Assembly (NCBI RefSeq): GCF_054482595.1
Contig: NZ_CM137008.1
Reading direction: 5' to 3' (one strand)
DNA length: 64,000 nt
Made by a program: the position numbers and the translations under genes. How positions within the stretch are numbered: position 1 is the stretch's first letter; the number at the start of each line of letters is the position of its first letter. The notes under the pieces are model-generated. The model saw only the letters and a program-made list of their open reading frames with translations. It ran no database searches and was not told the DNA's origin. Positions 2,844 through 58,027 of this stretch are shown here, one piece after another.

Positions 2844-3089
2844 TTAACCTCCGGTTACCGGCGGGAAGAAAGCTACTTCGTCGCCGTCAGTCAGCGGATG
2901 GTCAAAACTCACCAGCGTCTGGTTGACGGCAGCCAGTAATTTGCCATCTTCCAGCGCCAGCGCCCAGCGATCGCTCTGCGCAGCCAGGTGCTGGCGTAAC
3001 GCTTCAACGGTTGGGAAATCCGCAGCCACTTCGGTTGCATCTGTTCCTACCAACTCGCGCACCTGGGCGAAAAAAAGAACTTTAATCAT
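2844..3089 (-). CDS. moaD: Molybdopterin synthase sulfur-carrier subunit MoaD (81 aa)
   Basis: ORF trimmed to [12 protein letters not shown]...; 81 aa ending in Gly-Gly (PVTGG) typical of MoaD/ThiS carriers. Confidence 0.9.
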
Positions 3090-3567
3090 CCGCTTCCACC
3101 TTAAAGTCACCCGACTTGCCGCCGCTCTTCGCCAGCAAACGTACCGGACCAATCACCATATCTTTTTGCACCGCTTTGCACATGTCATAAATGGTCAGCG
3201 CCGCCACGGAGGCCGCGGTTAACGCTTCCATTTCGACACCGGTTTTCCCGGTCAGGCGGCATAAGGTTTCTATACGCACCCGATTGTGCTCCGGCTCGGC
3301 CTGTAAATTGACTTCAACTTTGCTGAGCATCAGCGGATGACACAGCGGGATCAGATCCCAGGTGCGTTTTGCCGCCTGAATACCGGCAATACGCGCAGTG
3401 GCAAATACGTCGCCTTTGTGGTGGCGACCATCAATAATCATCGCCAGCGTCTCGCTGCGCATGGTGACAAAGGCTTCCGCCCGCGCTTCACGCACGGTTT
3501 CCGCTTTGGCGGAGACATCCACCATGTGCGCTTCGCCAGCGGCGTTGATATGGGTCAGTTGCGACAT
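3082..3567 (-). CDS. moaC: Cyclic pyranopterin monophosphate synthase MoaC (161 aa)
   Basis: 161-aa ORF in moaABCDE order; overlaps moaD start by 8 nt. Confidence 0.9.
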
Positions 3568-3569
3568 AC

Positions 3570-4082
3570 TTATTTCTTCAAATGTGGATGGAAATTACAC
3601 GGACGCGTACGGGCATCCAGCTGCGGCGCGATGATATTTTCCCATGCGGTACGGCACGCTTTGGTCGAACCCGGCATGGCGAAAATCAGCGTTTTGTTAG
3701 CGACGCCCGCTACCGCACGAGATTGCAACGTGGAAGTGCCAATCTCTTCAAACGACAACATACGGAACACTTCACCAAAACCTTCAACTTCACGGTCGAA
3801 CAACGGCAGCAATGCTTCGGGAGCCTGATCACCTTCCGTCAGGCCAGTCCCCCCCGTAATCAACACCACTTGTACATCGTCGCTGGCGATCCACGCAGAT
3901 ACCTGAGCGCGAATAGCGTAGCGGTTTTCTTTCACAATGGCTTTATCGACAACGTGATGGCCCGCTTCTTGCGCCGAATCGCGCAAATAGTGACCGGAGG
4001 TATCGTCTTCTTCACCGCGACGATTAGAAACCGTAAGAATAGCAATACGGGTCGGGATAAATTCAGTGCTTACCTGACTCAT
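3570..4082 (-). CDS. moaB: Molybdenum cofactor biosynthesis protein MoaB (170 aa)
   Basis: 170-aa ORF, MogA/MoaB-like translation, between moaA and moaC. Confidence 0.9.
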
Positions 4083-4103
4083 CTGATCTCTCCTTTTGAC
4101 GTT

Positions 4104-5093
4104 TTAGCCGCCAATGTACGATAAGTTTTGCGTAATACCGGTGTTGTTTTGATGCAGGAAATGGGTCTGTTTCTTCTCCCGCAGCGCCGCTGAAATACGC
4201 GCTTCCAGCACCTGTTGCTGGGTATCGTCTTCCAGCAGATCGCGCAGGTTAACGCCGCCTTCACCAAACAGGCAGAGATGGAGTTTACCAATGGAGGAAA
4301 CGCGCAGACGGTTGCAAGTGGCGCAGAAGTCTTTTTCATACGGCATGATAAGGCCAATCTCTCCGGCGTAATCCGGATGACAAAAGACTTGCGCGGGACC
4401 GTCGCTGCGTTGACGTAATTGGTGGATCCAGCCGCGACGCAGTAGCTCGTCACGCAGAACCTGACCAGAGATGTGATGCTTACGGAAGAGCTCGCTGCCC
4501 TCGCCCGTTTCCATCAGTTCGATGAAACGCAGCTGGATAGGGCGATGCTGGATCCAGTTCAGAAAGGTGTCGAGCTGGTGATGATTAACATCACGCATCA
4601 GCACGGTATTGACTTTGACCTTCTCAAAACCGGCCTCAAATGCAGCATCAATCCCTGCCATGACCTGGTTGAATTTATCCTGCCCGGTAATAGCGTGAAA
4701 CTGGCGGGCGTCCAGACTATCAACGCTGACGTTGATGCCAGTAAGTCCAGCATCGCGCCAGTTCGCCACATCGCGTTCCAGACGGTAACCATTGGTGGTG
4801 ACCGCTATCTGGCGAATAGCGTCGTTTTCTCGCACAGCGGCGATGATATCGGTAAAGTCGCGGCGTAAAGACGGCTCACCGCCTGTCAGGCGCACTTTTT
4901 CGGTGCCCAGACTGGCGAAGGCGCGCGTAACCCGGCGAATTTCATCGACGGTCAGAAAGCCTTTATTGGTGACGCCGCTCGGTTTGTAGCCATCCGGCAG
5001 GCAGTAGGTGCAACGAAAGTTACACACATCGGTAATCGACAGGCGCAAGTAGTAAAACTTACGCGCAAATGCATCAGTCAGTTGTGAAGCCAT
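4104..5093 (-). CDS. moaA: GTP 3',8-cyclase MoaA, radical SAM (329 aa)
   Basis: ORF trimmed to MASQLTDAF...; CNFRCTYC radical-SAM cysteine motif near N-terminus; 329 aa. Confidence 0.92.
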
Positions 5094-5240
5094 GTACACC
5101 TTTCCAGATACGGGAGGCGAAGTCATTTCTTCCTTCGCCCTGGTGGCAATCTTTACGAGCATTGTCACGGCCAAAGCACCATATCAGTTGACCCAGGTGC
5201 AGAGGCTAGAGTGTTTAGTGGTTAAGCCGATACTAGCGTG
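5094..5240 (-). ncRNA. moaA 5' leader, expected location of the Moco riboswitch
   Basis: Long untranslated leader upstream of moaA; the riboswitch is placed by established knowledge of the E. coli moaA leader, its conserved fold was not verified here. Confidence 0.35.
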
Positions 5241-5429
5241 TAAATGAGATTTTTACCATCCACACTTTCGCTATGTAATCATGTATATAGCGTCATGATC
5301 GTGCTATTTCGCTACAGAATAAGGGAAAATGGCGGTTTTACTTTGATATACATCATCAGGGAGGCATAGCGTGCATCGTCCTTTAGAGGTAGAAGAAAAT
5401 AGTTTGTATCCTCAATATTGGCAGGTTAA

Positions 5430-6398
<969 letters not shown>

Positions 6399-14226: not shown

Positions 14227-14703
14227 ATGAAACTCATCAGTAACGATCTGCGCGATGGCGATAAGTTGCCGCATCGTCATGTCTTTAACGGCATGGGTTA
14301 CGATGGCGATAATATTTCACCGCATCTGGCGTGGGATGATGTTCCTGCGGGAACGAAAAGTTTTGTTGTCACATGCTACGACCCGGATGCGCCAACCGGC
14401 TCCGGCTGGTGGCACTGGGTAGTTGTTAATTTACCCGCTGATACCCGCGTATTACCGCAAGGGTTTGGCTCTGGTCTGGTAGCAATGCCAGACGGCGTTT
14501 TGCAGACGCGTACCGATTTTGGTAAAACCGGATACGATGGCGCAGCGCCACCGAAAGGCGAAACCCATCGCTACATTTTTACCGTTCACGCGCTGGATGT
14601 AGAGCGTATTGATGTCGATGAAGGAGCCAGCGGCGCGATGGTCGGGTTTAACGTTCATTTCCACTCTCTGGCAAGCGCATCGATTACCGCGATGTTTAGT
14701 TAA
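14227..14703 (+). CDS. ybhB: PEBP/kinase-inhibitor family protein YbhB (158 aa)
   Basis: 158-aa ORF downstream of bioA; last host gene before the prophage junction. Confidence 0.85.
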   Translation: MKLISNDLRDGDKLPHRHVFNGMGYDGDNISPHLAWDDVPAGTKSFVVTCYDPDAPTGSGWWHWVVVNLPADTRVLPQGFGSGLVAMPDGVLQTRTDFGKTGYDGAAPPKGETHRYIFTVHALDVERIDVDEGASGAMVGFNVHFHSLASASITAMFS

Positions 14704-17465: not shown

Positions 17466-18194
17466 TTATGCAACATTACTCCCATGAATCAGGTGTTGTA
17501 GTGCTTTAACACCTTCCTCATTGTAGCGGAATGCTTCCACCTGTTTGCTGGAATGCGCAGATTTATCCAGGAAGAACTTCCCGTACTGCTCAGTTTTGAG
17601 GTTGTTTGCGTTAGCAATGCGACCAATCTTGTTGGCCGTTACCCCAAGCTGCTCTGCAACCTCCCCTGCTGAGTAGTAATGCTCTTCTATTGCTGGAAGA
17701 GGTATTGCATTAAAACCAACGATCGGGTTGATTATGCTTGCTGCCGCAGTCTGCTTTGCTTCCGGCGCAAGATTTGGCATCAAATCGAACAGATTGGTAA
17801 CAGCTTCAACCGTCATTTTCAATGTTCGCGCCTGGCGATACTCAACAAGTCCACTAGACGATTTACCGCTTTTAATGTGCGCTTCTTGCATACTTTCAAG
17901 TTGGTCTACAAGTGAGCGGCGAACAGCTTTAGATTCACGAGCAGCCACTCGAAGGGCTTGCTTAATTGACATAACAACTTTTTCAGAAGTTGTCTTGTTT
18001 GATTTTTGAACTACGAAAATTTCGTAGTGCTCACCTTCAAGTTCATCCTTAATGCGTGCAATAAAGTCGTTATTGCGGACTTCTTTTTCCCCGCACTGTC
18101 TACGAGCATGATTGACCATCTCTAACAGGTACTGGCTATCAATGGTTTTATCCGTGACAACGGATCCGATGTTTGCTACATTCTTAAAAGTCAT
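17466..18194 (-). CDS. Putative antirepressor-like/regulatory protein (243 aa)
   Basis: ORF 17466..18245 trimmed to ATG at 18194 with AAGGA RBS; C-terminal region loosely resembles KilA-C/ORF6C-type antirepressor tails; sits between ant and tailspike. Confidence 0.35.
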   Translation of the reverse strand: MTFKNVANIGSVVTDKTIDSQYLLEMVNHARRQCGEKEVRNNDFIARIKDELEGEHYEIFVVQKSNKTTSEKVVMSIKQALRVAARESKAVRRSLVDQLESMQEAHIKSGKSSSGLVEYRQARTLKMTVEAVTNLFDLMPNLAPEAKQTAAASIINPIVGFNAIPLPAIEEHYYSAGEVAEQLGVTANKIGRIANANNLKTEQYGKFFLDKSAHSSKQVEAFRYNEEGVKALQHLIHGSNVA

Positions 18195-18282
18195 TAGGCA
18201 TTCCTTATGTGGTAGTAAGGGTGTGACATAGGCCGCCAGCAGCACACTGGCGGTTTTCTTTTTGCGCCGTCCGGCGCACCAA

Positions 18283-18909
18283 TCAATGAATCCATTCCTC
18301 GCCGCGCAGTTTTGCCAGCATTGGCTGAGCGTTCTTTACGACAAAATTGTTGGTATCAAGATTCTTCATTTCACGAAGAAGTGATTTCTTGGTTTCTTCT
18401 GACATGTAGCGAGTCTCATATGCAATATCGTAAATCCTTCCTGAAAGCTCAGAACCAATTTGCTTCATTCCTGGGTAGATGTGTTTGCACATTTGTTGAC
18501 TCTTCTCCATCCACAATTGTAAGTAGCAGAGATTAACCAGTTCTTCGTCAGTAAACTGTTTTGCAATCGGTGAGCATTCTGCCTGCCGATCCAAAATATC
18601 CAGCACCCAGCGGCGGAACTCTTTGGCTACCTGAGTGCGAGCAAACATCGCGATTAGGTGGGCACCGCGTAGTGAGAAAACACGCACTTTTTTGCGATAA
18701 TTTCCTGAGGTACTCACTTCGAGTACCTGAGTCATTCCGGCGCTAAACTCATCGCTATACTTGTTATAAATCATTGTTACTGCACGACTATTTGCGTATT
18801 TAAGTGCAGATGCAATATTAGATGATGTAAACCAAACACCATGCATATCACGGGTGGGCACCAATTCAACTCCGTGGAAGTTATAATCTGATTTTGCTAC
18901 AATATTCAT
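18283..18909 (-). CDS. ant: Antirepressor with Bro-N domain (about 208 aa; start uncertain)
   Basis: FHGVELVPTRDMHGVWFTSSNIASALKY...FSLRGAHLIAMFARTQVAKEFRRWVLDIL is Bro-N-like; ATG at 18909 has AAGGAA RBS; longer frame to 18993 would overlap arc. Confidence 0.6.
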   Translation of the reverse strand: MNIVAKSDYNFHGVELVPTRDMHGVWFTSSNIASALKYANSRAVTMIYNKYSDEFSAGMTQVLEVSTSGNYRKKVRVFSLRGAHLIAMFARTQVAKEFRRWVLDILDRQAECSPIAKQFTDEELVNLCYLQLWMEKSQQMCKHIYPGMKQIGSELSGRIYDIAYETRYMSEETKKSLLREMKNLDTNNFVVKNAQPMLAKLRGEEWIH

Positions 18910-18982
18910 GTTAGTTTCCTTGCATACGGTTACTGACATAGAGGCCCGGTTTGTGTTCACGCACTGCCGGGCTTCACTATTT

Positions 18983-19156
18983 TTACTGGGCATTAGCTCT
19001 TTCCTCTCTCAGGCTTTTAGCCAGTCGCTGCACAATCGCAGAGTTGATAGAAATTCCATCCATTTCAGCAACACGTCTAATCTCCTCCTTCATTCGCGCT
19101 GGCAAACGAAGCTGGAAACTTTGACTTTTACGACCTGTGTAAAGCACATCTTTCAT
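18983..19156 (-). CDS. arc: Arc-like ribbon-helix-helix repressor (57 aa)
   Basis: MKDVLYTGRKSQSFQLRLPARMKEEIRRVAEMDGISINSAIVQRL resembles P22 Arc (MetJ/Arc RHH fold). Confidence 0.7.
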   Translation of the reverse strand: MKDVLYTGRKSQSFQLRLPARMKEEIRRVAEMDGISINSAIVQRLAKSLREERANAQ

Positions 19157-19183
19157 AAGTAATCCTCCCACAATGATACCAAC

Positions 19184-19199
19184 TTGGTTCTAGAACCAA
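19184..19199. promoter_or_regulatory. immI operator candidate: perfect 16-bp palindrome
   Basis: TTGGTTCTAGAACCAA in the divergent arc-mnt intergenic region. Confidence 0.6.
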
Positions 19200-19267
19200 T
19201 TTAACACCATTTATTTTGATGTCAAGTTGGTGCTATTGTTTAGCGAACATCTTTACGTTGAGGTCAT

Positions 19268-19588
19268 ATGAGCAAGTTCCCTAGTCATGAAATGGATAGG
19301 TTCAATATCAGGCTTCCTGCAGGAATGCGGGATGCTATAGCTGAACGAGCCAAACGTAACGGCAGATCAATGAACTCAGAGATTGTTCAGATACTGGAAG
19401 ATGCCTTGAATGCAGAAAATACACTCGGGGAAATAGCAGATAAAATCAACAGCGTCTCGGTTCCGCTAAATGTTGATGCGCTAGTTCAACTTCAAGCCCA
19501 GGTTATCGCCATGCAAAAAGAAATACAGGAAAAGTTCAGAGAGCAGAACGAAAAGTTGAGAGAACTGCTAAACAAAAAAACCACCTGA
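19268..19588 (+). CDS. mnt: Mnt-like repressor (106 aa)
   Basis: N-terminal RHH motif FNIRLPAGMRDAIAERAKRNGRSMNSEIVQILEDAL and C-terminal coiled coil ending KKTT, as in P22 Mnt (recalled). Confidence 0.75.
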   Translation: MSKFPSHEMDRFNIRLPAGMRDAIAERAKRNGRSMNSEIVQILEDALNAENTLGEIADKINSVSVPLNVDALVQLQAQVIAMQKEIQEKFREQNEKLRELLNKKTT

Positions 19589-19612
19589 CGGTGGGTTAAT
19601 TTTTGCCTTTTT
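19579..19612 (+). terminator. Rho-independent terminator after mnt
   Basis: aaaccacc tgac ggtgggtt followed by T-rich tract. Confidence 0.6.
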
Positions 19613-19686
19613 TGGACCATATTGACTACTCATAAAATGAGATCAATATTTAATCGCCCAATAACGGGTGCATGTTGAGGTATATC

Positions 19687-19866
19687 ATGGCGAAAAAACC
19701 AGGTGAAAACACAGGAAAAAACGGCGGAATATACCAAGAAGTTGGCCCGCGCGGAGGTAAGAAAGACAATTTTGCCACCGTCAAGGACAACGAAAGGCTT
19801 CCGCCAACAACAAAGCCAGGTCATGGCTGGGTATTAGATAAGCGAACTCCAGACAGCAAAAAGTAA
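19687..19866 (+). CDS. Small Gly/Lys-rich protein, YjzC-like (59 aa)
   Basis: ATG at 19687 with GAGG 6 nt upstream; MAKKPGENTGKNGGIYQEVGPRGG...LPPTTKPGHGWVL resembles YjzC-family small proteins (recalled, low certainty). Confidence 0.45.
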   Translation: MAKKPGENTGKNGGIYQEVGPRGGKKDNFATVKDNERLPPTTKPGHGWVLDKRTPDSKK

Positions 19867-19879
19867 TAATCAAGCCGGG

Positions 19880-20245
19880 TCACTCCGGCTTTTTGATATG
19901 TCGCTCGCAGAACTCAACAAGCCTGCTCATTAAGTAGCAGTAAGTCTCGTTGGCTCTTCCTGGTTCAACATCAACGCCGACCCTTGAGCAGATATCGAAT
20001 GCCATGTGAGCGCACTCATGGGCAATAGTAGATAGTTTGCCATTGAACACACCTATCACATGCAAAACACCATTCTCGCTGCTCATTGTATGAGACGCTC
20101 CGTTGGCATCCGAGTCCTGCACGTCCACGCCAAGTTTTTGATGCAGGCGTTGCCATTCTGGAAAGTCTCTGCAAAACACAATTGTACCGCTCTCAAAGAG
20201 CGGAACGAGCATTTTTGGTACGTTTCCAATGTTAACTTTTTTCAT
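19880..20245 (-). CDS. Hypothetical 121-aa protein with HExxH motif (possible minimal zinc metallopeptidase)
   Basis: ATG at 20245 with AGGA RBS; translation contains IAHECAHMAFD (HExxH) and a downstream Glu; no TM segment; stop lies inside hairpin 19871..19893. Confidence 0.5.
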   Translation of the reverse strand: MKKVNIGNVPKMLVPLFESGTIVFCRDFPEWQRLHQKLGVDVQDSDANGASHTMSSENGVLHVIGVFNGKLSTIAHECAHMAFDICSRVGVDVEPGRANETYCYLMSRLVEFCERHIKKPE

Positions 20246-20275
20246 GGTATCCTGCTCAAAACTAAGGAGGTTGGT

Positions 20276-20464
20276 GTGAAGAAAAAATTTGTAAACGTTG
20301 CAAAGTGCGCAATTTTTATATTTTTTATGACCTTTTACGGATTTAGTGCCGGAGAAGGTTTCGATCGTGATGCCAATGCATTCAGTTTCTTTTGTCTGTC
20401 TATAGTGGTCATAATTGTATGGGTGGAATTAAAGCAAACATTGTTTCATGTGCTAGGGAAATAA
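20276..20464 (+). CDS. Small membrane protein (62 aa, GTG start)
   Basis: AAGGAGG 5 nt upstream of GTG at 20276; two hydrophobic helices (AKCAIFIFFMTFYGF, FFCLSIVVIIVWV). Confidence 0.4.
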   Translation: MKKKFVNVAKCAIFIFFMTFYGFSAGEGFDRDANAFSFFCLSIVVIIVWVELKQTLFHVLGK

Positions 20465-20481
20465 CCATCCATGGCATTTAG

Positions 20482-22347
20482 TCACTGCTGTGTTGCCTCA
20501 GTGGCAAGCAGCGGTCTGATGGCATTTGCAGCGTTACTTAATGCTCTTTCATAGGCTGGCGTTCCTGCTTTGGTGTTTGCCAGACGTAAGAGCGCATTCC
20601 TGGCCATAGGGCTTTCATAAACCCTCGACATAAGGCCAATCCCTGTTTCCCCAGCCAATAGCGCGCCTCCGGTTTTTAGGTTACCAATAACCCTTACCAA
20701 AGGCGCGAGTGTCATGCCAGTCTTCGTCACAACATTAGCCTCAGATGCTCTTTTGGTAGCATCGAGAATAGATAACATCCCCTCTATCTCTTTTCCGTTC
20801 TTCCCACCAAATACAGTTTTAAACACCTGACCATTTGCTTGTTTTTGCAGCTTGCCAAGCTCGGTCATCATTTTCTGAGGGCTGTCACCTACCTTGTCAG
20901 CTATTTTGCTGATATATGCCGCCCTTAGCATGTCTTTACCTTTTTGATCGAGTTTCCCGTACAATCGAGCTATATCTGACCCATATTGTCCATACACAAT
21001 GGTATTTACAGCCTCGGGAGTTAAATCTCCTTTGTTTAGAACGTTTTTAAGGCGCGTTTGAGTTGCATGTGTTGCCATTTTTGCATAATCAGCTTTTCCC
21101 GCTCTCCATGCTGAAGCATCTTTTGGGCTAAGTCCTTTCGCTATAGATTTACTAAGGCTATTGGTTAGCGAGTTATAGACCCTGTCGACCATTGTTTGCG
21201 ACATTGATGGCAGAACTGTACGATCGCCTTTTACGTCAATGCGGAACTGAGTTCTCAGCTTATCAAGTAACTCAAAGGCATCATCTCCATTTGTTATCTC
21301 CTGAATGGCATTCTTATAATCATTAAGCGCAGAAATGGTCTGGGTGTCAGAAACACCTTTAAGTTTCCCAAGTTCGTTTACTGCTCCGTCGATAGCTCTT
21401 ATGGCGCCACTTGTATCAACTGGCTTTCCAACCATTCTTCCTGACAGGCTGTTTAGTTTTGACTTGGCTAACGATTTTTCCCTTGCAACGCCTGACTTTA
21501 GACTATCAACGACTACAGATGGATCGTAGTCGCCGTATTTTTCGGTGAAGCGATTAACAAGCTTGGTTCTGGCATCCTGCTGTGCGGCTCTCATTGGTCC
21601 AGTACCAGCTATGACTCCTTCTGAGTAACCCTGCAGTTGATTGCCAAGTTTTGTTTTTGGAGGAACTACATCTGATGTCATAACTGGTACATCTGCCGCA
21701 GCGGCACGCTTGAGCAATTGCTGATCTGCTGGTGATATTTCGCCACGAACAGCAGTAATTCCACGCCCTATTCCCTTTGCTGCTGCGGAAAGAACACCCT
21801 GAGCGGCAAGGTTAACTCCGGCATTTTTAGCTGCATTTTGTGCGAAATCGCCTTTCTGATTTGCGGCCTCTGCCAGTGATCCAATAGCCATGCTTCCTGC
21901 CGTTCCAACTCCTGGAACTAAATACCCGCCAATTGTTTCTCCAGCTTGCGCATAAGGGTCTGTCGGTCGCTCGACAGGGCGATAAACATCATCCAAAACC
22001 TTGGGGCCGCCAAGCCCCTGGCTGATTGCATTAATCAGACTTGCGCCACCCTGCAATACGTCAAATGGTATGTTTACCAGACCGCGACCAGCCTGCTCTG
22101 CAATTTGCCCTGCACTTTGACCACCAGTGAGCCAATCGCCAGCTTGTTGCATCAATGATGGTTCTTCTTTCTGCTGCTGAGGCGGAGGGTATGCTGCATA
22201 AAACTGATCTCTTGCTTCAGCCCATTTGTCACCAGCCTTAGGGGCAACAACCTCATCAAAATATTGCGCTTGAGCCTGTGCTTTCTGTTCTTCAGTTAAC
22301 GCCTGATACTGTGGAGAGGCGATAACATCTTTCCATGCTTTAGCCAT
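20482..22347 (-). CDS. P22 gp16-like ejection (internal virion) protein (621 aa)
   Basis: Size and order after gp20; last gene of the P22-type ejection-protein set. Confidence 0.75.
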   Translation of the reverse strand: MAKAWKDVIASPQYQALTEEQKAQAQAQYFDEVVAPKAGDKWAEARDQFYAAYPPPQQQKEEPSLMQQAGDWLTGGQSAGQIAEQAGRGLVNIPFDVLQGGASLINAISQGLGGPKVLDDVYRPVERPTDPYAQAGETIGGYLVPGVGTAGSMAIGSLAEAANQKGDFAQNAAKNAGVNLAAQGVLSAAAKGIGRGITAVRGEISPADQQLLKRAAAADVPVMTSDVVPPKTKLGNQLQGYSEGVIAGTGPMRAAQQDARTKLVNRFTEKYGDYDPSVVVDSLKSGVAREKSLAKSKLNSLSGRMVGKPVDTSGAIRAIDGAVNELGKLKGVSDTQTISALNDYKNAIQEITNGDDAFELLDKLRTQFRIDVKGDRTVLPSMSQTMVDRVYNSLTNSLSKSIAKGLSPKDASAWRAGKADYAKMATHATQTRLKNVLNKGDLTPEAVNTIVYGQYGSDIARLYGKLDQKGKDMLRAAYISKIADKVGDSPQKMMTELGKLQKQANGQVFKTVFGGKNGKEIEGMLSILDATKRASEANVVTKTGMTLAPLVRVIGNLKTGGALLAGETGIGLMSRVYESPMARNALLRLANTKAGTPAYERALSNAANAIRPLLATEATQQ

Positions 22348-55342: not shown

Positions 55343-55561
55343 ATGTACTTGACACTTCAGGAGTGGAACGCACGCCAGCGACGCCCAAGAAGCCTTGAAA
55401 CAGTTCGTCGATGGGTACGCGAGTGCAGGATATTCCCTCCTCCGGTTAAGGATGGAAGAGAGTATCTGTTCCACGAATCAGCGGTAAAGGTTGACTTAAA
55501 TCGACCAGTAACAGGTAGCCTTTTGAAGAGGATCAGAAATGGGAAGAAGGCGAAGTCATGA
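55343..55561 (+). CDS. xis: Excisionase Xis, lambda-type (72 aa)
   Basis: MYLTLQEWNARQRRPRSLETVRRWVRECRIFPPPVKDGREYLFHESAVKVDLNRP matches lambda Xis as recalled. Confidence 0.93.
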   Translation: MYLTLQEWNARQRRPRSLETVRRWVRECRIFPPPVKDGREYLFHESAVKVDLNRPVTGSLLKRIRNGKKAKS

Positions 55562-56609
55562 GCGCCGGGATTTACCCCCTAACCTTTATATAAGAAACAA
55601 TGGATATTACTGCTACAGGGACCCAAGGACGGGTAAAGAGTTTGGATTAGGCAGAGACAGGCGAATCGCAATCACTGAAGCCATACAGGCCAACATTGAG
55701 TTATTTTCAGGACACAAACACAAGCCTCTGACAGCGAGAATCAACAGTGATAATTCCGTTACGTTACATTCATGGCTTGATCGCTACGAAAAAATCCTGG
55801 CCAGCAGAGGAATCAAGCAGAAGACACTCATAAATTACATGAGCAAAATTAAAGCAATACGGGGGGGGCTGCCTGATGCTCCACTTGAAGACATCACCAC
55901 AAAAGAAATTGCGGCAATGCTCAATGGATACATAGACGAGGGCAAGGCGGCGTCAGCCAAGTTAATCAGATCAACACTGAGCGATGCATTCCGAGAGGCA
56001 ATAGCTGAAGGCCATATAACAACAAACCCTGTCGCTGCCACTCGCGCAGCAAAATCAGAGGTAAGGAGATCAAGACTTACGGCTGACGAATACCTGAAAA
56101 TTTATCAAGCAGCAGAATCATCACCATGTTGGCTCAGACTTGCAATGGAACTGGCTGTTGTTACCGGGCAACGAGTTGGTGATTTATGCGAAATGAAGTG
56201 GTCTGATATCGTAGATGGATATCTTTATGTCGAGCAAAGCAAAACAGGCGTAAAAATTGCCATCCCAACAACATTGCATGTTGATGCTCTCGGGATATCA
56301 ATGAAGGAAACACTCGATAAATGCAAAGAGATTCTTGGCGGAGAAACCATAATTGCATCTACTCGTCGTGAACCGCTTTCATCCGGCACAGTATCAAGGT
56401 ATTTTATGCGCGCACGAAAAGCATCAGGTCTTTCCTTCGAAGGGGATCCGCCTACCTTTCACGAGTTGCGCAGTTTGTCTGCAAGACTCTATGAGAAGCA
56501 GATAAGCGATAAGTTTGCTCAACATCTTCTCGGGCATAAGTCGGACACCATGGCATCACAGTATCGTGATGACAGAGGCAGGGAGTGGGACAAAATTGAA
56601 ATCAAATAA
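55539..56609 (+). CDS. int: Integrase Int, lambda-type tyrosine recombinase (356 aa)
   Basis: MGRRRSHERRDLPPNLYIRNNGYYCYRDPRTGKEFGLGRDRRIAITEAIQ... matches lambda Int as recalled; overlaps xis end. Confidence 0.95.
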   Translation: MGRRRSHERRDLPPNLYIRNNGYYCYRDPRTGKEFGLGRDRRIAITEAIQANIELFSGHKHKPLTARINSDNSVTLHSWLDRYEKILASRGIKQKTLINYMSKIKAIRGGLPDAPLEDITTKEIAAMLNGYIDEGKAASAKLIRSTLSDAFREAIAEGHITTNPVAATRAAKSEVRRSRLTADEYLKIYQAAESSPCWLRLAMELAVVTGQRVGDLCEMKWSDIVDGYLYVEQSKTGVKIAIPTTLHVDALGISMKETLDKCKEILGGETIIASTRREPLSSGTVSRYFMRARKASGLSFEGDPPTFHELRSLSARLYEKQISDKFAQHLLGHKSDTMASQYRDDRGREWDKIEIK

Positions 56610-56743: not shown

Positions 56744-58027
56744 GTGAACACATTTTCAGTTTCCCGTCTGGCGCTGGCATTGGCTTTTGGCGTGACGCTG
56801 ACCGCCTGTAGCTCAACACCACCCGATCAACGTCCTTCTGATCAAACTGCGCCTGGTACCTCTTCTCGCCCGATTCTGTCGGCAAAAGAAGCGCAGAATT
56901 TCGATGCTCAACACTATTTTGCATCCCTGACACCAGGTGCTGCAGCGTGGAATCCGTCCCCGATAACCCTGCCTGCGCAACCTGACTTTGTTGTCGGCCC
57001 GGCGGGTACTCAAGGTGTAACGCATACCACGATTCAGGCGGCGGTAGATGCGGCAATTATCAAGCGCACCAACAAGCGCCAGTATATTGCCGTGATGCCT
57101 GGTGAGTATCAGGGAACGGTGTATGTCCCTGCTGCTCCAGGTGGAATTACTCTGTACGGTACAGGTGAAAAACCGATTGATGTGAAGATTGGGCTTTCCC
57201 TTGATGGGGGCATGAGCCCTGCCGACTGGCGTCACGACGTCAACCCGCGCGGCAAATATATGCCAGGTAAACCAGCGTGGTATATGTACGATAGCTGCCA
57301 GAGCAAACGCAGCGACAGTATCGGTGTTCTGTGTTCTGCGGTCTTCTGGTCACAAAACAATGGCCTGCAACTGCAAAACCTGACCATCGAAAACACGCTG
57401 GGTGATAGCGTAGATGCGGGTAACCATCCGGCGGTGGCACTGCGTACTGACGGTGACCAGGTACAGATTAACAACGTTAACATTCTCGGTCGTCAGAACA
57501 CCTTCTTTGTCACCAACAGCGGTGTGCAGAACCGTCTGGAAACGAATCGTCAGCCGCGTACGCTGGTGACCAACAGCTACATTGAAGGGGATGTGGATAT
57601 CGTTTCTGGTCGCGGCGCAGTGGTGTTCGATAACACCGAATTCCGCGTGGTGAACTCACGTACTCAGCAAGAAGCGTATGTGTTTGCACCGGCTACGCTG
57701 TCCAACATTTACTACGGTTTCCTCGCCGTAAACAGCCGTTTCAATGCTTCCGGTGATGGCGTGGCACAACTGGGCCGCTCGCTGGATGTTGATGCCAATA
57801 CCAACGGTCAGGTGGTGATCCGTGATAGCGCCATCAACGAAGGTTTTAATACGGCTAAACCGTGGGGCGATGCGGTGATCTCTAATCGTCCGTTTGCGGG
57901 TAACACCGGCAGCGTTGACGATAGCGACGAAATACAGCGCAATCTGAATGACACTAACTACAACCGCATGTGGGAATACAATAACCGCGGCGTGGGTAGC
58001 AAAGTGGTTGCAGAGGCGAAGAAGTAA
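56744..58027 (+). CDS. ybhC: Pectinesterase-like outer membrane lipoprotein YbhC (427 aa)
   Basis: Signal peptide with lipobox LTAC; 427 aa; host gene on the gal side of attB-lambda. Confidence 0.88.
   Translation: MNTFSVSRLALALAFGVTLTACSSTPPDQRPSDQTAPGTSSRPILSAKEAQNFDAQHYFASLTPGAAAWNPSPITLPAQPDFVVGPAGTQGVTHTTIQAAVDAAIIKRTNKRQYIAVMPGEYQGTVYVPAAPGGITLYGTGEKPIDVKIGLSLDGGMSPADWRHDVNPRGKYMPGKPAWYMYDSCQSKRSDSIGVLCSAVFWSQNNGLQLQNLTIENTLGDSVDAGNHPAVALRTDGDQVQINNVNILGRQNTFFVTNSGVQNRLETNRQPRTLVTNSYIEGDVDIVSGRGAVVFDNTEFRVVNSRTQQEAYVFAPATLSNIYYGFLAVNSRFNASGDGVAQLGRSLDVDANTNGQVVIRDSAINEGFNTAKPWGDAVISNRPFAGNTGSVDDSDEIQRNLNDTNYNRMWEYNNRGVGSKVVAEAKK

Follow-up and report, generated by a model that had tools for sequence, protein, structure and literature searches.

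Results

Three small genes between mnt and gene 16

Within a 64,000-nucleotide stretch of contig NZ_CM137008.1 (assembly GCF_054482595.1; hereafter the window), three small open reading frames (ORFs) lie between a gene for an Mnt-like repressor and a homologue of phage P22 gene 16. ORF1 (59a, also written orf59a; positions 19687–19866, + strand, 59 amino acids) is antisense to the late operon, as is ORF3 (20276–20464, + strand, 62 amino acids), which starts with GTG and ends 17 nt from the gene 16 stop codon. ORF2 (hkcC; 19880–20245, − strand, 121 amino acids, with the sequence HECAH at residues 76–80) is co-oriented with gene 16 and the late operon. The gene 16 homologue itself (20482–22347, − strand), which is the last gene of the ejection-protein cluster, is called a "DNA transfer protein" in matching phage records, and the Pfam family Phage_P22_gp16 is found in homologous loci. 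All three ORFs are real genes, and the coordinates, lengths, strands, GTG start, and two hydrophobic segments in ORF3 that a first-pass annotation had proposed from the sequence were borne out, as was the hairpin that it placed between ORF1 and ORF2.

This bidirectional hairpin (19872–19891) is common to the convergent ORF1 and ORF2; it has eight pairs, a folding energy of −14.1 kcal/mol (z = −3.1 against shuffled sequences), and a loop that contains the ORF2 stop codon (19880–19882), and its T-tail is good on the + strand and poor on the − strand. Good ribosome-binding sites had been proposed for all three genes. ORF3 has the strong Shine-Dalgarno sequence AAGGAGG at 20264–20270, 5 nt before the GTG, and ORF1 has GAGG 7 nt before its ATG; ORF2 has only a modest AGGA 4 nt before its ATG. 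We place the start of ORF1 at 19687 rather than five codons earlier at 19672, as in the program-made ORF list, because its homologues begin with MAKKPG. An upstream extension of ORF3 to an ATG at 20060, which would give 134 residues and run antisense through hkcC, was rejected as an artefact, as the homologues and the Shine-Dalgarno sequence fix the start at 20276. Upstream of ORF1, a consensus scan found a sigma-70-like site on the + strand (TTGACT, 17 nt, AATATT; 19622–19650) with 9 of 12 matches, which may be a promoter of its own for this gene; such sites are no commoner in the region than in shuffled sequences, and the candidate is weak.

Most of the block is shared with phage P22

When window positions 19560–20500 were compared with P22 by megablast, query positions 13–719 aligned at 97.5% nucleotide identity. 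The shared block (19572–20278) comprises the 3′ end of mnt, ORF1, the hairpin, ORF2, the sieA promoter region, and the Shine-Dalgarno sequence and start codon of the gene that follows, and it begins only within the 3′ end of mnt. The P22 records AF527608 and BK000583 show, in this order, mnt, orf59a, the mnt terminator, approximately 370 unannotated bases, the sieA promoter PsieA, sieA, and gene 16. ORF1 is 98% identical to the P22 orf59a protein, the hairpin corresponds to the annotated mnt terminator, and ORF2 fills the unannotated stretch; it is listed as a hypothetical protein in SE1 and other phages and is absent from the annotation of both P22 records. The earlier impression that none of the three genes resembles one of P22 is thus wrong for the first two, which were previously described in P22 as hkcC and 59a, genes of the "ant moron" with no known function (Villafane et al. 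2008, PMC2629481). The window shares with the P22 ant moron both the order and the orientation of mnt, 59a, hairpin, hkcC, promoter, slot gene, and gene 16; it differs in its Mnt, which has 106 residues compared to 83 in P22, and in the slot gene, which is sieA in P22 and ORF3 here. Since P22 carries ORF1 and ORF2 beside sieA, neither gene can be a replacement of sieA.

One promoter and start codon precede at least 11 unrelated envelope genes

When aligned with one another, the window, P22, and SE1 proved to be identical up to the GTG start codon and then to continue into three unrelated ORFs: sieA (164 residues) in P22, ORF3 (62 residues) in the window, and in SE1 an unannotated ORF of 109 residues with a transmembrane segment and a coiled coil. 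The SE1 gene (NC_011802; approximately 3137–3466, + strand, of the extracted locus) has its transmembrane segment at the N-terminus and belongs to phrog_8100; a second, unrelated 109-residue slot protein of similar build in other contigs belongs to phrog_5962.

We then surveyed the cargo of this slot in 80 P22-like contigs from IMG/VR whose hkcC is at least 99% identical to that of the window. At least 11 unrelated types of cargo were recovered, all of which have transmembrane segments, lipoboxes, or signal peptides, and only one of which, SieA, has been characterised. The commonest is a 161-residue lipoprotein with the lipobox LLAGC (~17 loci), followed by SieA (~13), a 129-residue signal-peptide protein (~12), two types of 109-residue protein with a transmembrane segment and a coiled coil (~10 and ~9), a 75-residue multi-transmembrane protein (~8), a 106-residue N-terminally anchored protein (~5), ORF3 (~4), and envelope proteins of 68, 99, and 149 residues (a few loci each). 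Ten sequences, namely nine cargos other than SieA and ORF3 together with a 74-residue protein that replaces ORF1 in some loci, were also compared with family libraries: they fell into eight different PHROGs, all of unknown function, with two matching none, and NCBIfam returned nothing meaningful for any of the ten. In each of the 82 loci compared, resemblance to the window is lost 24–44 nt upstream of the hkcC ATG, a zone of approximately 20 nt around the Shine-Dalgarno sequence and start codon of the slot gene.

The conserved DNA on the other side of this junction is the 85 bp before the slot gene (20191–20275, + strand), a "launch pad" that partly overlaps the opening codons of ORF2, read from the opposite strand, and over which the P22 records annotate PsieA. 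It is identical at 83 of 85 positions to the P22 fragment that drove a functional single-copy sieA, an arrangement in which exclusion reached 10^7-fold or more (Leavitt et al. 2024, PMC10883804). The same study found that SieA, an inner-membrane protein, is alone necessary and sufficient, and that it is escaped through C-terminal changes in gp16 and gp20 (PMC10883804). The fixed promoter, Shine-Dalgarno sequence, and start codon, partly antisense within the 5′ end of hkcC, would drive any ORF that recombined in behind them.

These observations bear directly on whether the three genes are expressed in the lysogen as a single exclusion or anti-phage module and together substitute for sieA, as had been the working view of the first-pass annotation. 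In its favour, three small accessory genes of unknown function adjoin the sieA position, and ORF1 and ORF3 run antisense to the late operon. The neighbourhood was correctly recognised, and ORF3 occupies exactly the position of sieA; the equivalence does not extend to the whole block, given that P22 has ORF1 and ORF2 together with sieA. SieA moreover acts alone from the 85-bp fragment (PMC10883804), ORF2 lies in late-operon orientation, and no family in PADLOC-DB 2.0 matched any of the three ORFs at E-values up to 1. Phage phiv205-1 carries ORF3 without hkcC, the different cargos found beside hkcC number at least 11, and 11 of the 80 loci have another gene in place of ORF1. Because the genes assort independently, the one-module explanation is largely refuted, and we regard it as highly improbable. 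The region is probably the gene-16-proximal end of an ant moron in a P22-like prophage, made up of three independently assorting units rather than one system.

ORF3 is an alternative occupant of the sieA slot

ORF3 matches phrog_21338 over its full length. Kyte-Doolittle analysis places its hydrophobic segments at approximately residues 5–26 and 33–53, with the conserved acidic sequence GEGFDRD forming the loop between them. The protein begins with a basic stretch (KKK) and has lysine at its C-terminus, so that by the positive-inside rule both ends are predicted to be cytoplasmic. The protein would accordingly form a hairpin in the membrane, with both termini in the cytoplasm and the acidic loop in the periplasm. 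Relatives with approximately 80% identity keep all 62 codons, start with GTG or ATG at the same codon, and each have a Shine-Dalgarno sequence of their own; like ORF3, they always lie 17 nt from the gene 16 stop codon. The phages phiv205-1, JEP4, and UPF_BP1 encode proteins 97–98% identical to ORF3 (up to 100% at the DNA level), which are unannotated in all three. Of 5426 complete Escherichia coli genomes, 88 also contain the gene, 86 of them with an identity of at least 99%, and among the matches listed no annotated feature lies beneath it.

The comparison with SieA is informative in both directions. ORF3 shares the slot, promoter, Shine-Dalgarno sequence, start codon, and orientation of sieA; it lies between the homologues of genes 16 and 9, uses the sieA start position, is convergent with gene 16, and is likewise a predicted inner-membrane protein. 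SieA proteins have 164–212 residues and three or four transmembrane segments, compared to 62 residues and two hydrophobic segments in ORF3, and the SieA motif FxRYPxEAxxFNK is absent from ORF3. We considered and rejected the possibility that ORF3 is a truncated or "mini" SieA, as a BLASTP match to the SieA motif region was at chance level and was absent against the type B SieA of E. coli HS. ORF3 is an alternative cargo of the sieA slot, a new occupant that replaces sieA behind the same promoter.

We consider it reasonably probable that ORF3 serves in phage exclusion or envelope immunity, taken together. It would then be a prophage-expressed inner-membrane factor that shields the lysogen at the envelope, a job common to its slot neighbours, and its most probable action would be to stop incoming phages from delivering their DNA, in the way that SieA acts against the gp16/gp20 conduit. 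Taken separately, phage exclusion is a possibility that falls somewhat short of being probable, and several results weigh against it. A BLASTP comparison of ORF3 with SieA gave E-values of 0.28–0.74, and hhalign against the SieA proteins of P22 and E. coli HS (type B) gave a probability of 0.7%; with no detectable similarity to SieA, an exclusion role is argued from position and protein type alone. Searches of Pfam, NCBIfam, and PADLOC returned nothing above threshold for ORF3 or for ORF2, and a simple consensus promoter scan of the region missed PsieA. In Salmonella, an 81%-identical copy of ORF3 is the second gene behind the 161-residue lipoprotein, and in Serratia-type loci a relative lies behind a Rap1a-domain protein; with such neighbours, immunity to a bacterial toxin fits ORF3 as well as phage exclusion does.

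In this alternative, ORF3 would be an inner-membrane immunity protein against a membrane-acting bacteriocin or type VI secretion system (T6SS) effector, or a membrane helper of the periplasmic or lipoprotein cargo that precedes it elsewhere. Small proteins with two transmembrane segments are typical of bacteriocin immunity, Rap1a is a T6SS immunity family, and it is in second place, after a Rap1a-domain protein or the lipoprotein, that these relatives of ORF3 are found. Against this, ORF3 stands alone directly behind the launch pad in the window and in 4 of the 80 IMG/VR loci, which indicates that a partner is not needed; SieA, the one occupant that has been characterised, blocks injection, and ORF3 always lies beside the ejection-protein gene 16. 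We therefore hold a role in bacterial-toxin immunity, or as a helper, to be rather unlikely, and retain exclusion at the envelope as the preferred reading of ORF3. The Rap1a-domain protein itself (115 residues; loci L109 and L110, 3144–3491, + strand) hints that some cargos of the slot may protect against bacterial toxins.

Two further candidates for relatives of ORF3 were tried and discarded. The "orf62" of phages L and ST64T is not a homologue; the ORF found there is lipoprotein-like and lies on the late strand. Phage BTP1 has an exclusion factor described as an antisense RNA, STnc6030, for which escape mutations alter C-terminal residues of gp16 (PMC7067206). In the BTP1 locus (L007, 4700–5500) STnc6030 is antisense to the 3′ end of gene 16, and its escape resembles that from SieA. 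A hidden ORF3-like membrane protein was not found there: only 155 bp separate gene 16 from the tailspike gene, and the antisense strand has no membrane-like ORF.

hkcC encodes a putative zincin-like protein in a large family

A profile search with hkcC retrieved 547 clusters at 50% identity, nearly all of them proteins of 110–140 residues. Among 74 members, with identities down to 22%, only H76, E77, H80, and E100 are invariant, so the HExxH motif pointed out by the first-pass annotation is a conserved feature of the family. The motif consists of HExxH and a glutamate 20 residues past the second histidine, in an Asn-Glu context, a spacing that we take to be that of thermolysin-type gluzincins. 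An AlphaFold2 model with a mean predicted local distance difference test score (pLDDT) of 89.1 shows a small sheet followed by a helix that bears HExxH (residues 71–88) and a further helix that bears E100 (residues 100–116), such that the putative third-ligand glutamate lies on the helix after the presumed active-site helix. This arrangement of beta-sheet, active-site helix, and Glu-bearing helix resembles that of gluzincins and minimal zincins, including the thermolysin type, the ImmA/IrrE family M78, SprT-like proteins, DUF4157, and PDB entry 3e11.

Foldseek searches of the AlphaFold Protein Structure Database recovered the family itself first and then proteins of approximately 110–135 residues named IrrE N-terminal-like, ImmA/IrrE, SprT-like, DUF4157, phage metallopeptidase, or polyvalent-protein-associated domain. 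The suggestion that ORF2 might be an ImmA/M78-like or SprT-like zincin finds an echo in the names of its structural neighbours and less support in profile matches: Pfam Peptidase_M78 matched neither hkcC nor any of its 74 relatives, and Pfam SprT-like (PF10263) gave no match to the window protein and weak matches to relatives, with 1 of 74 at E ≤ 0.001 and 9 of 74 at E ≤ 0.1. A search of sequences of solved structures in the PDB with the hkcC profile gave only sub-threshold astacin-type proteases (E ≥ 0.1), and matches of the "HEC" sequence to lantibiotic families in NCBIfam and Pfam were dismissed as noise. Motif and model together suggest that hkcC is probably a minimal gluzincin-like metallopeptidase outside M78 and SprT. 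It would be a cytoplasmic protein in which both histidines of HExxH and Glu100 bind zinc and Glu77 acts as the catalytic base. Some relatives (P0186, P0190, P0239, P0256, and P0273) have strongly basic C-terminal tails of 40–60 residues rich in Lys, Glu, and Ala, which are possibly nucleic-acid-binding or targeting extensions.

The genomic settings of hkcC are varied. Relatives sit between the tail-tube and tape-measure genes of lambda-like prophages, in the nin region with an overlapping stop and start codon, directly before the large terminase gene, again with overlapping stop and start codons, and in P22-like prophages of Morganella. In every locus the orientation of hkcC matches that of the surrounding lytic genes, and expression in a lysogen is unlikely given this consistent co-orientation. 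Our scan for terminator-like sites found none on the minus strand between gene 16 and ORF2, so read-through from the late operon into hkcC is probable, and a conserved private promoter is unlikely because the DNA upstream of hkcC is variable cargo. From its orientation, we infer that hkcC is expressed in the lytic phase, when it would act on a cytoplasmic substrate. The expectation that the block is expressed in lysogens hence suits ORF1 and ORF3, which run against the late operon as lysogen-expressed morons do, and does not suit ORF2, which is co-oriented with gene 16 and the lytic operons.

These settings also speak to the possibility that hkcC is an ImmA-like anti-repressor protease, which would cleave Mnt or another prophage repressor and thereby aid induction. 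An M78 protease would be expected to pair with a cognate helix-turn-helix repressor as its substrate; the genes around hkcC instead differ between phages and frequently belong to tail, nin, or terminase regions, away from repressors. Taken with the missing Peptidase_M78 match, this makes an anti-repressor role very unlikely. To our knowledge, the genetics of the P22 immI region has never required such a protease.

59a is a probable YjzC-family protein linked to hkcC

ORF1 belongs to phrog_3202 and matches the Pfam family YjzC (PF14168) directly over nearly the whole model (E = 0.0018, 19 bits). It has 108 database relatives, of which some more distant ones carry PF14168, and close ones are named "YjzC family protein" in UniRef. 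AlphaFold2 predicts a three-strand beta fold (pLDDT 87.6), and ORF1 is probably a small beta protein of the YjzC family. It would be made in the lysogen, from Pmnt or from its own promoter, with transcription ending at the shared hairpin. The 74-residue protein mentioned above, which has two transmembrane segments and no PHROG, takes the place of 59a directly beyond the hairpin in 11 of the 80 loci (for example at 3380–3604, − strand, of locus L016); the position of 59a is thus a second variable slot flanking hkcC.

The linkage between 59a and hkcC is real. The two genes are convergent, with a gap of 5–15 nt, on unrelated backbones that include lambda-like tail regions, the nin region, Pasteurellaceae, Xenorhabdus, Proteus, and Morganella; the cassette also occurs in Rosenbergiella, Klebsiella, and a metagenomic lambdoid phage, and both genes are present in 69 of the 80 P22-like loci. 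This raises the question of whether they are a functional pair, either a protease with its inhibitor or substrate or a switch between lysogeny and lysis in which hkcC, made late, removes the 59a made in the lysogen. A phage-derived pair of a metzincin and a TIMP-like protein in Listeria (PMC8235301) may be counted in favour of such a pairing. Against it, hkcC at 99% identity or more lacks 59a in 11 of the 80 loci, and hkcC relatives at 40% identity or less are found without 59a; conversely, a 59a homologue of 68% identity occurs by itself, with GmrSD, HEPN, and HigBA genes as its neighbours, and other relatives of 59a occur in bacteria outside phages. A cassette of 560 bp can also be physically linked without any functional link. 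We therefore regard functional coupling as unlikely on this evidence. The hkcC-free homologue of 59a lies in another type of prophage (loci L116–L118, approximately 3001–6180), near lysis genes and beside genes of GmrSD-like, HEPN, and HigB/helix-turn-helix type.

The surrounding prophage

The prophage extends from approximately 15.3 to 56.6 kb of the window, between ybhB/bioABFCD/uvrB and ybhC (flanks at 14227–14703 and 56744–58027), and its integrase gene lies at 55539–56609. This ybhB-bio-uvrB/ybhC setting is the neighbourhood of the classical lambda attachment site. The immI region (17466–19588) contains two different antirepressor genes in tandem (17466–18245, phrog_1726; and 18283–18993, Ant, phrog_245) and an Arc-like gene (18983–19171). 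The Mnt-like repressor gene (19268–19588, + strand) matches phrog_1287 and Arc-like ribbon-helix-helix families; its product has a long C-terminal extension and is not the P22 allele. The terminator-like scan also found a short GC hairpin at the mnt stop codon (19581–19594) followed by a T-run.

Discussion

The sieA slot resembles the accessory hot spots of P2 and P4 prophages, in which conserved flanks enclose swappable cargo (PMC9122126), and more generally the concept of the moron. Conserved anchor genes, a hypervariable slot, many unrelated small cargos, and expression that would be independent of the lytic operon are common to all of these, and the variable presence of genes in otherwise syntenic phages is seen here both in the 11 or more cargos of the slot and in the replacement of ORF1. 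Two differences from the P2 and P4 hot spots stand out: the junction at the sieA slot is unusually tight, with all changes falling within approximately 20 nt around the start codon, and its cargos are without exception small proteins of the envelope, with no multi-gene cytoplasmic defence system among them.

Taken together, these features allow us to propose, as a tentative and rather speculative model, that the sieA launch pad serves as a dedicated hot spot of diversity, anchored in hkcC. P22-like prophages would use it to swap at least 11 unrelated envelope proteins, each a distinct factor that blocks entry or confers immunity at the envelope; ORF3, with its 62 residues, would be a minimal protein that blocks phage DNA delivery at the inner membrane, and hkcC and 59a would form a mobile cassette based on a protease, with one gene read in one phase of the life cycle and the other in the opposite phase.

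Even the textbook phage P22 has two genes beside sieA, hkcC and 59a, that lack a known function, and one of them, hkcC, is missing from the reference annotations. Its membership in a large family of approximately 120-residue proteins with an invariant gluzincin motif provides a concrete hypothesis that can be addressed by mutation of H76, E77, H80, and E100. ORF3, present in 88 of the 5426 E. coli genomes and unannotated among the matches listed, represents a small annotation gap. Current views are not overturned by these results, which extend the known variability of the ant moron and make available, in the cargos of the sieA slot, a set of candidates for exclusion or immunity that could all be cloned behind the common 85-bp fragment.

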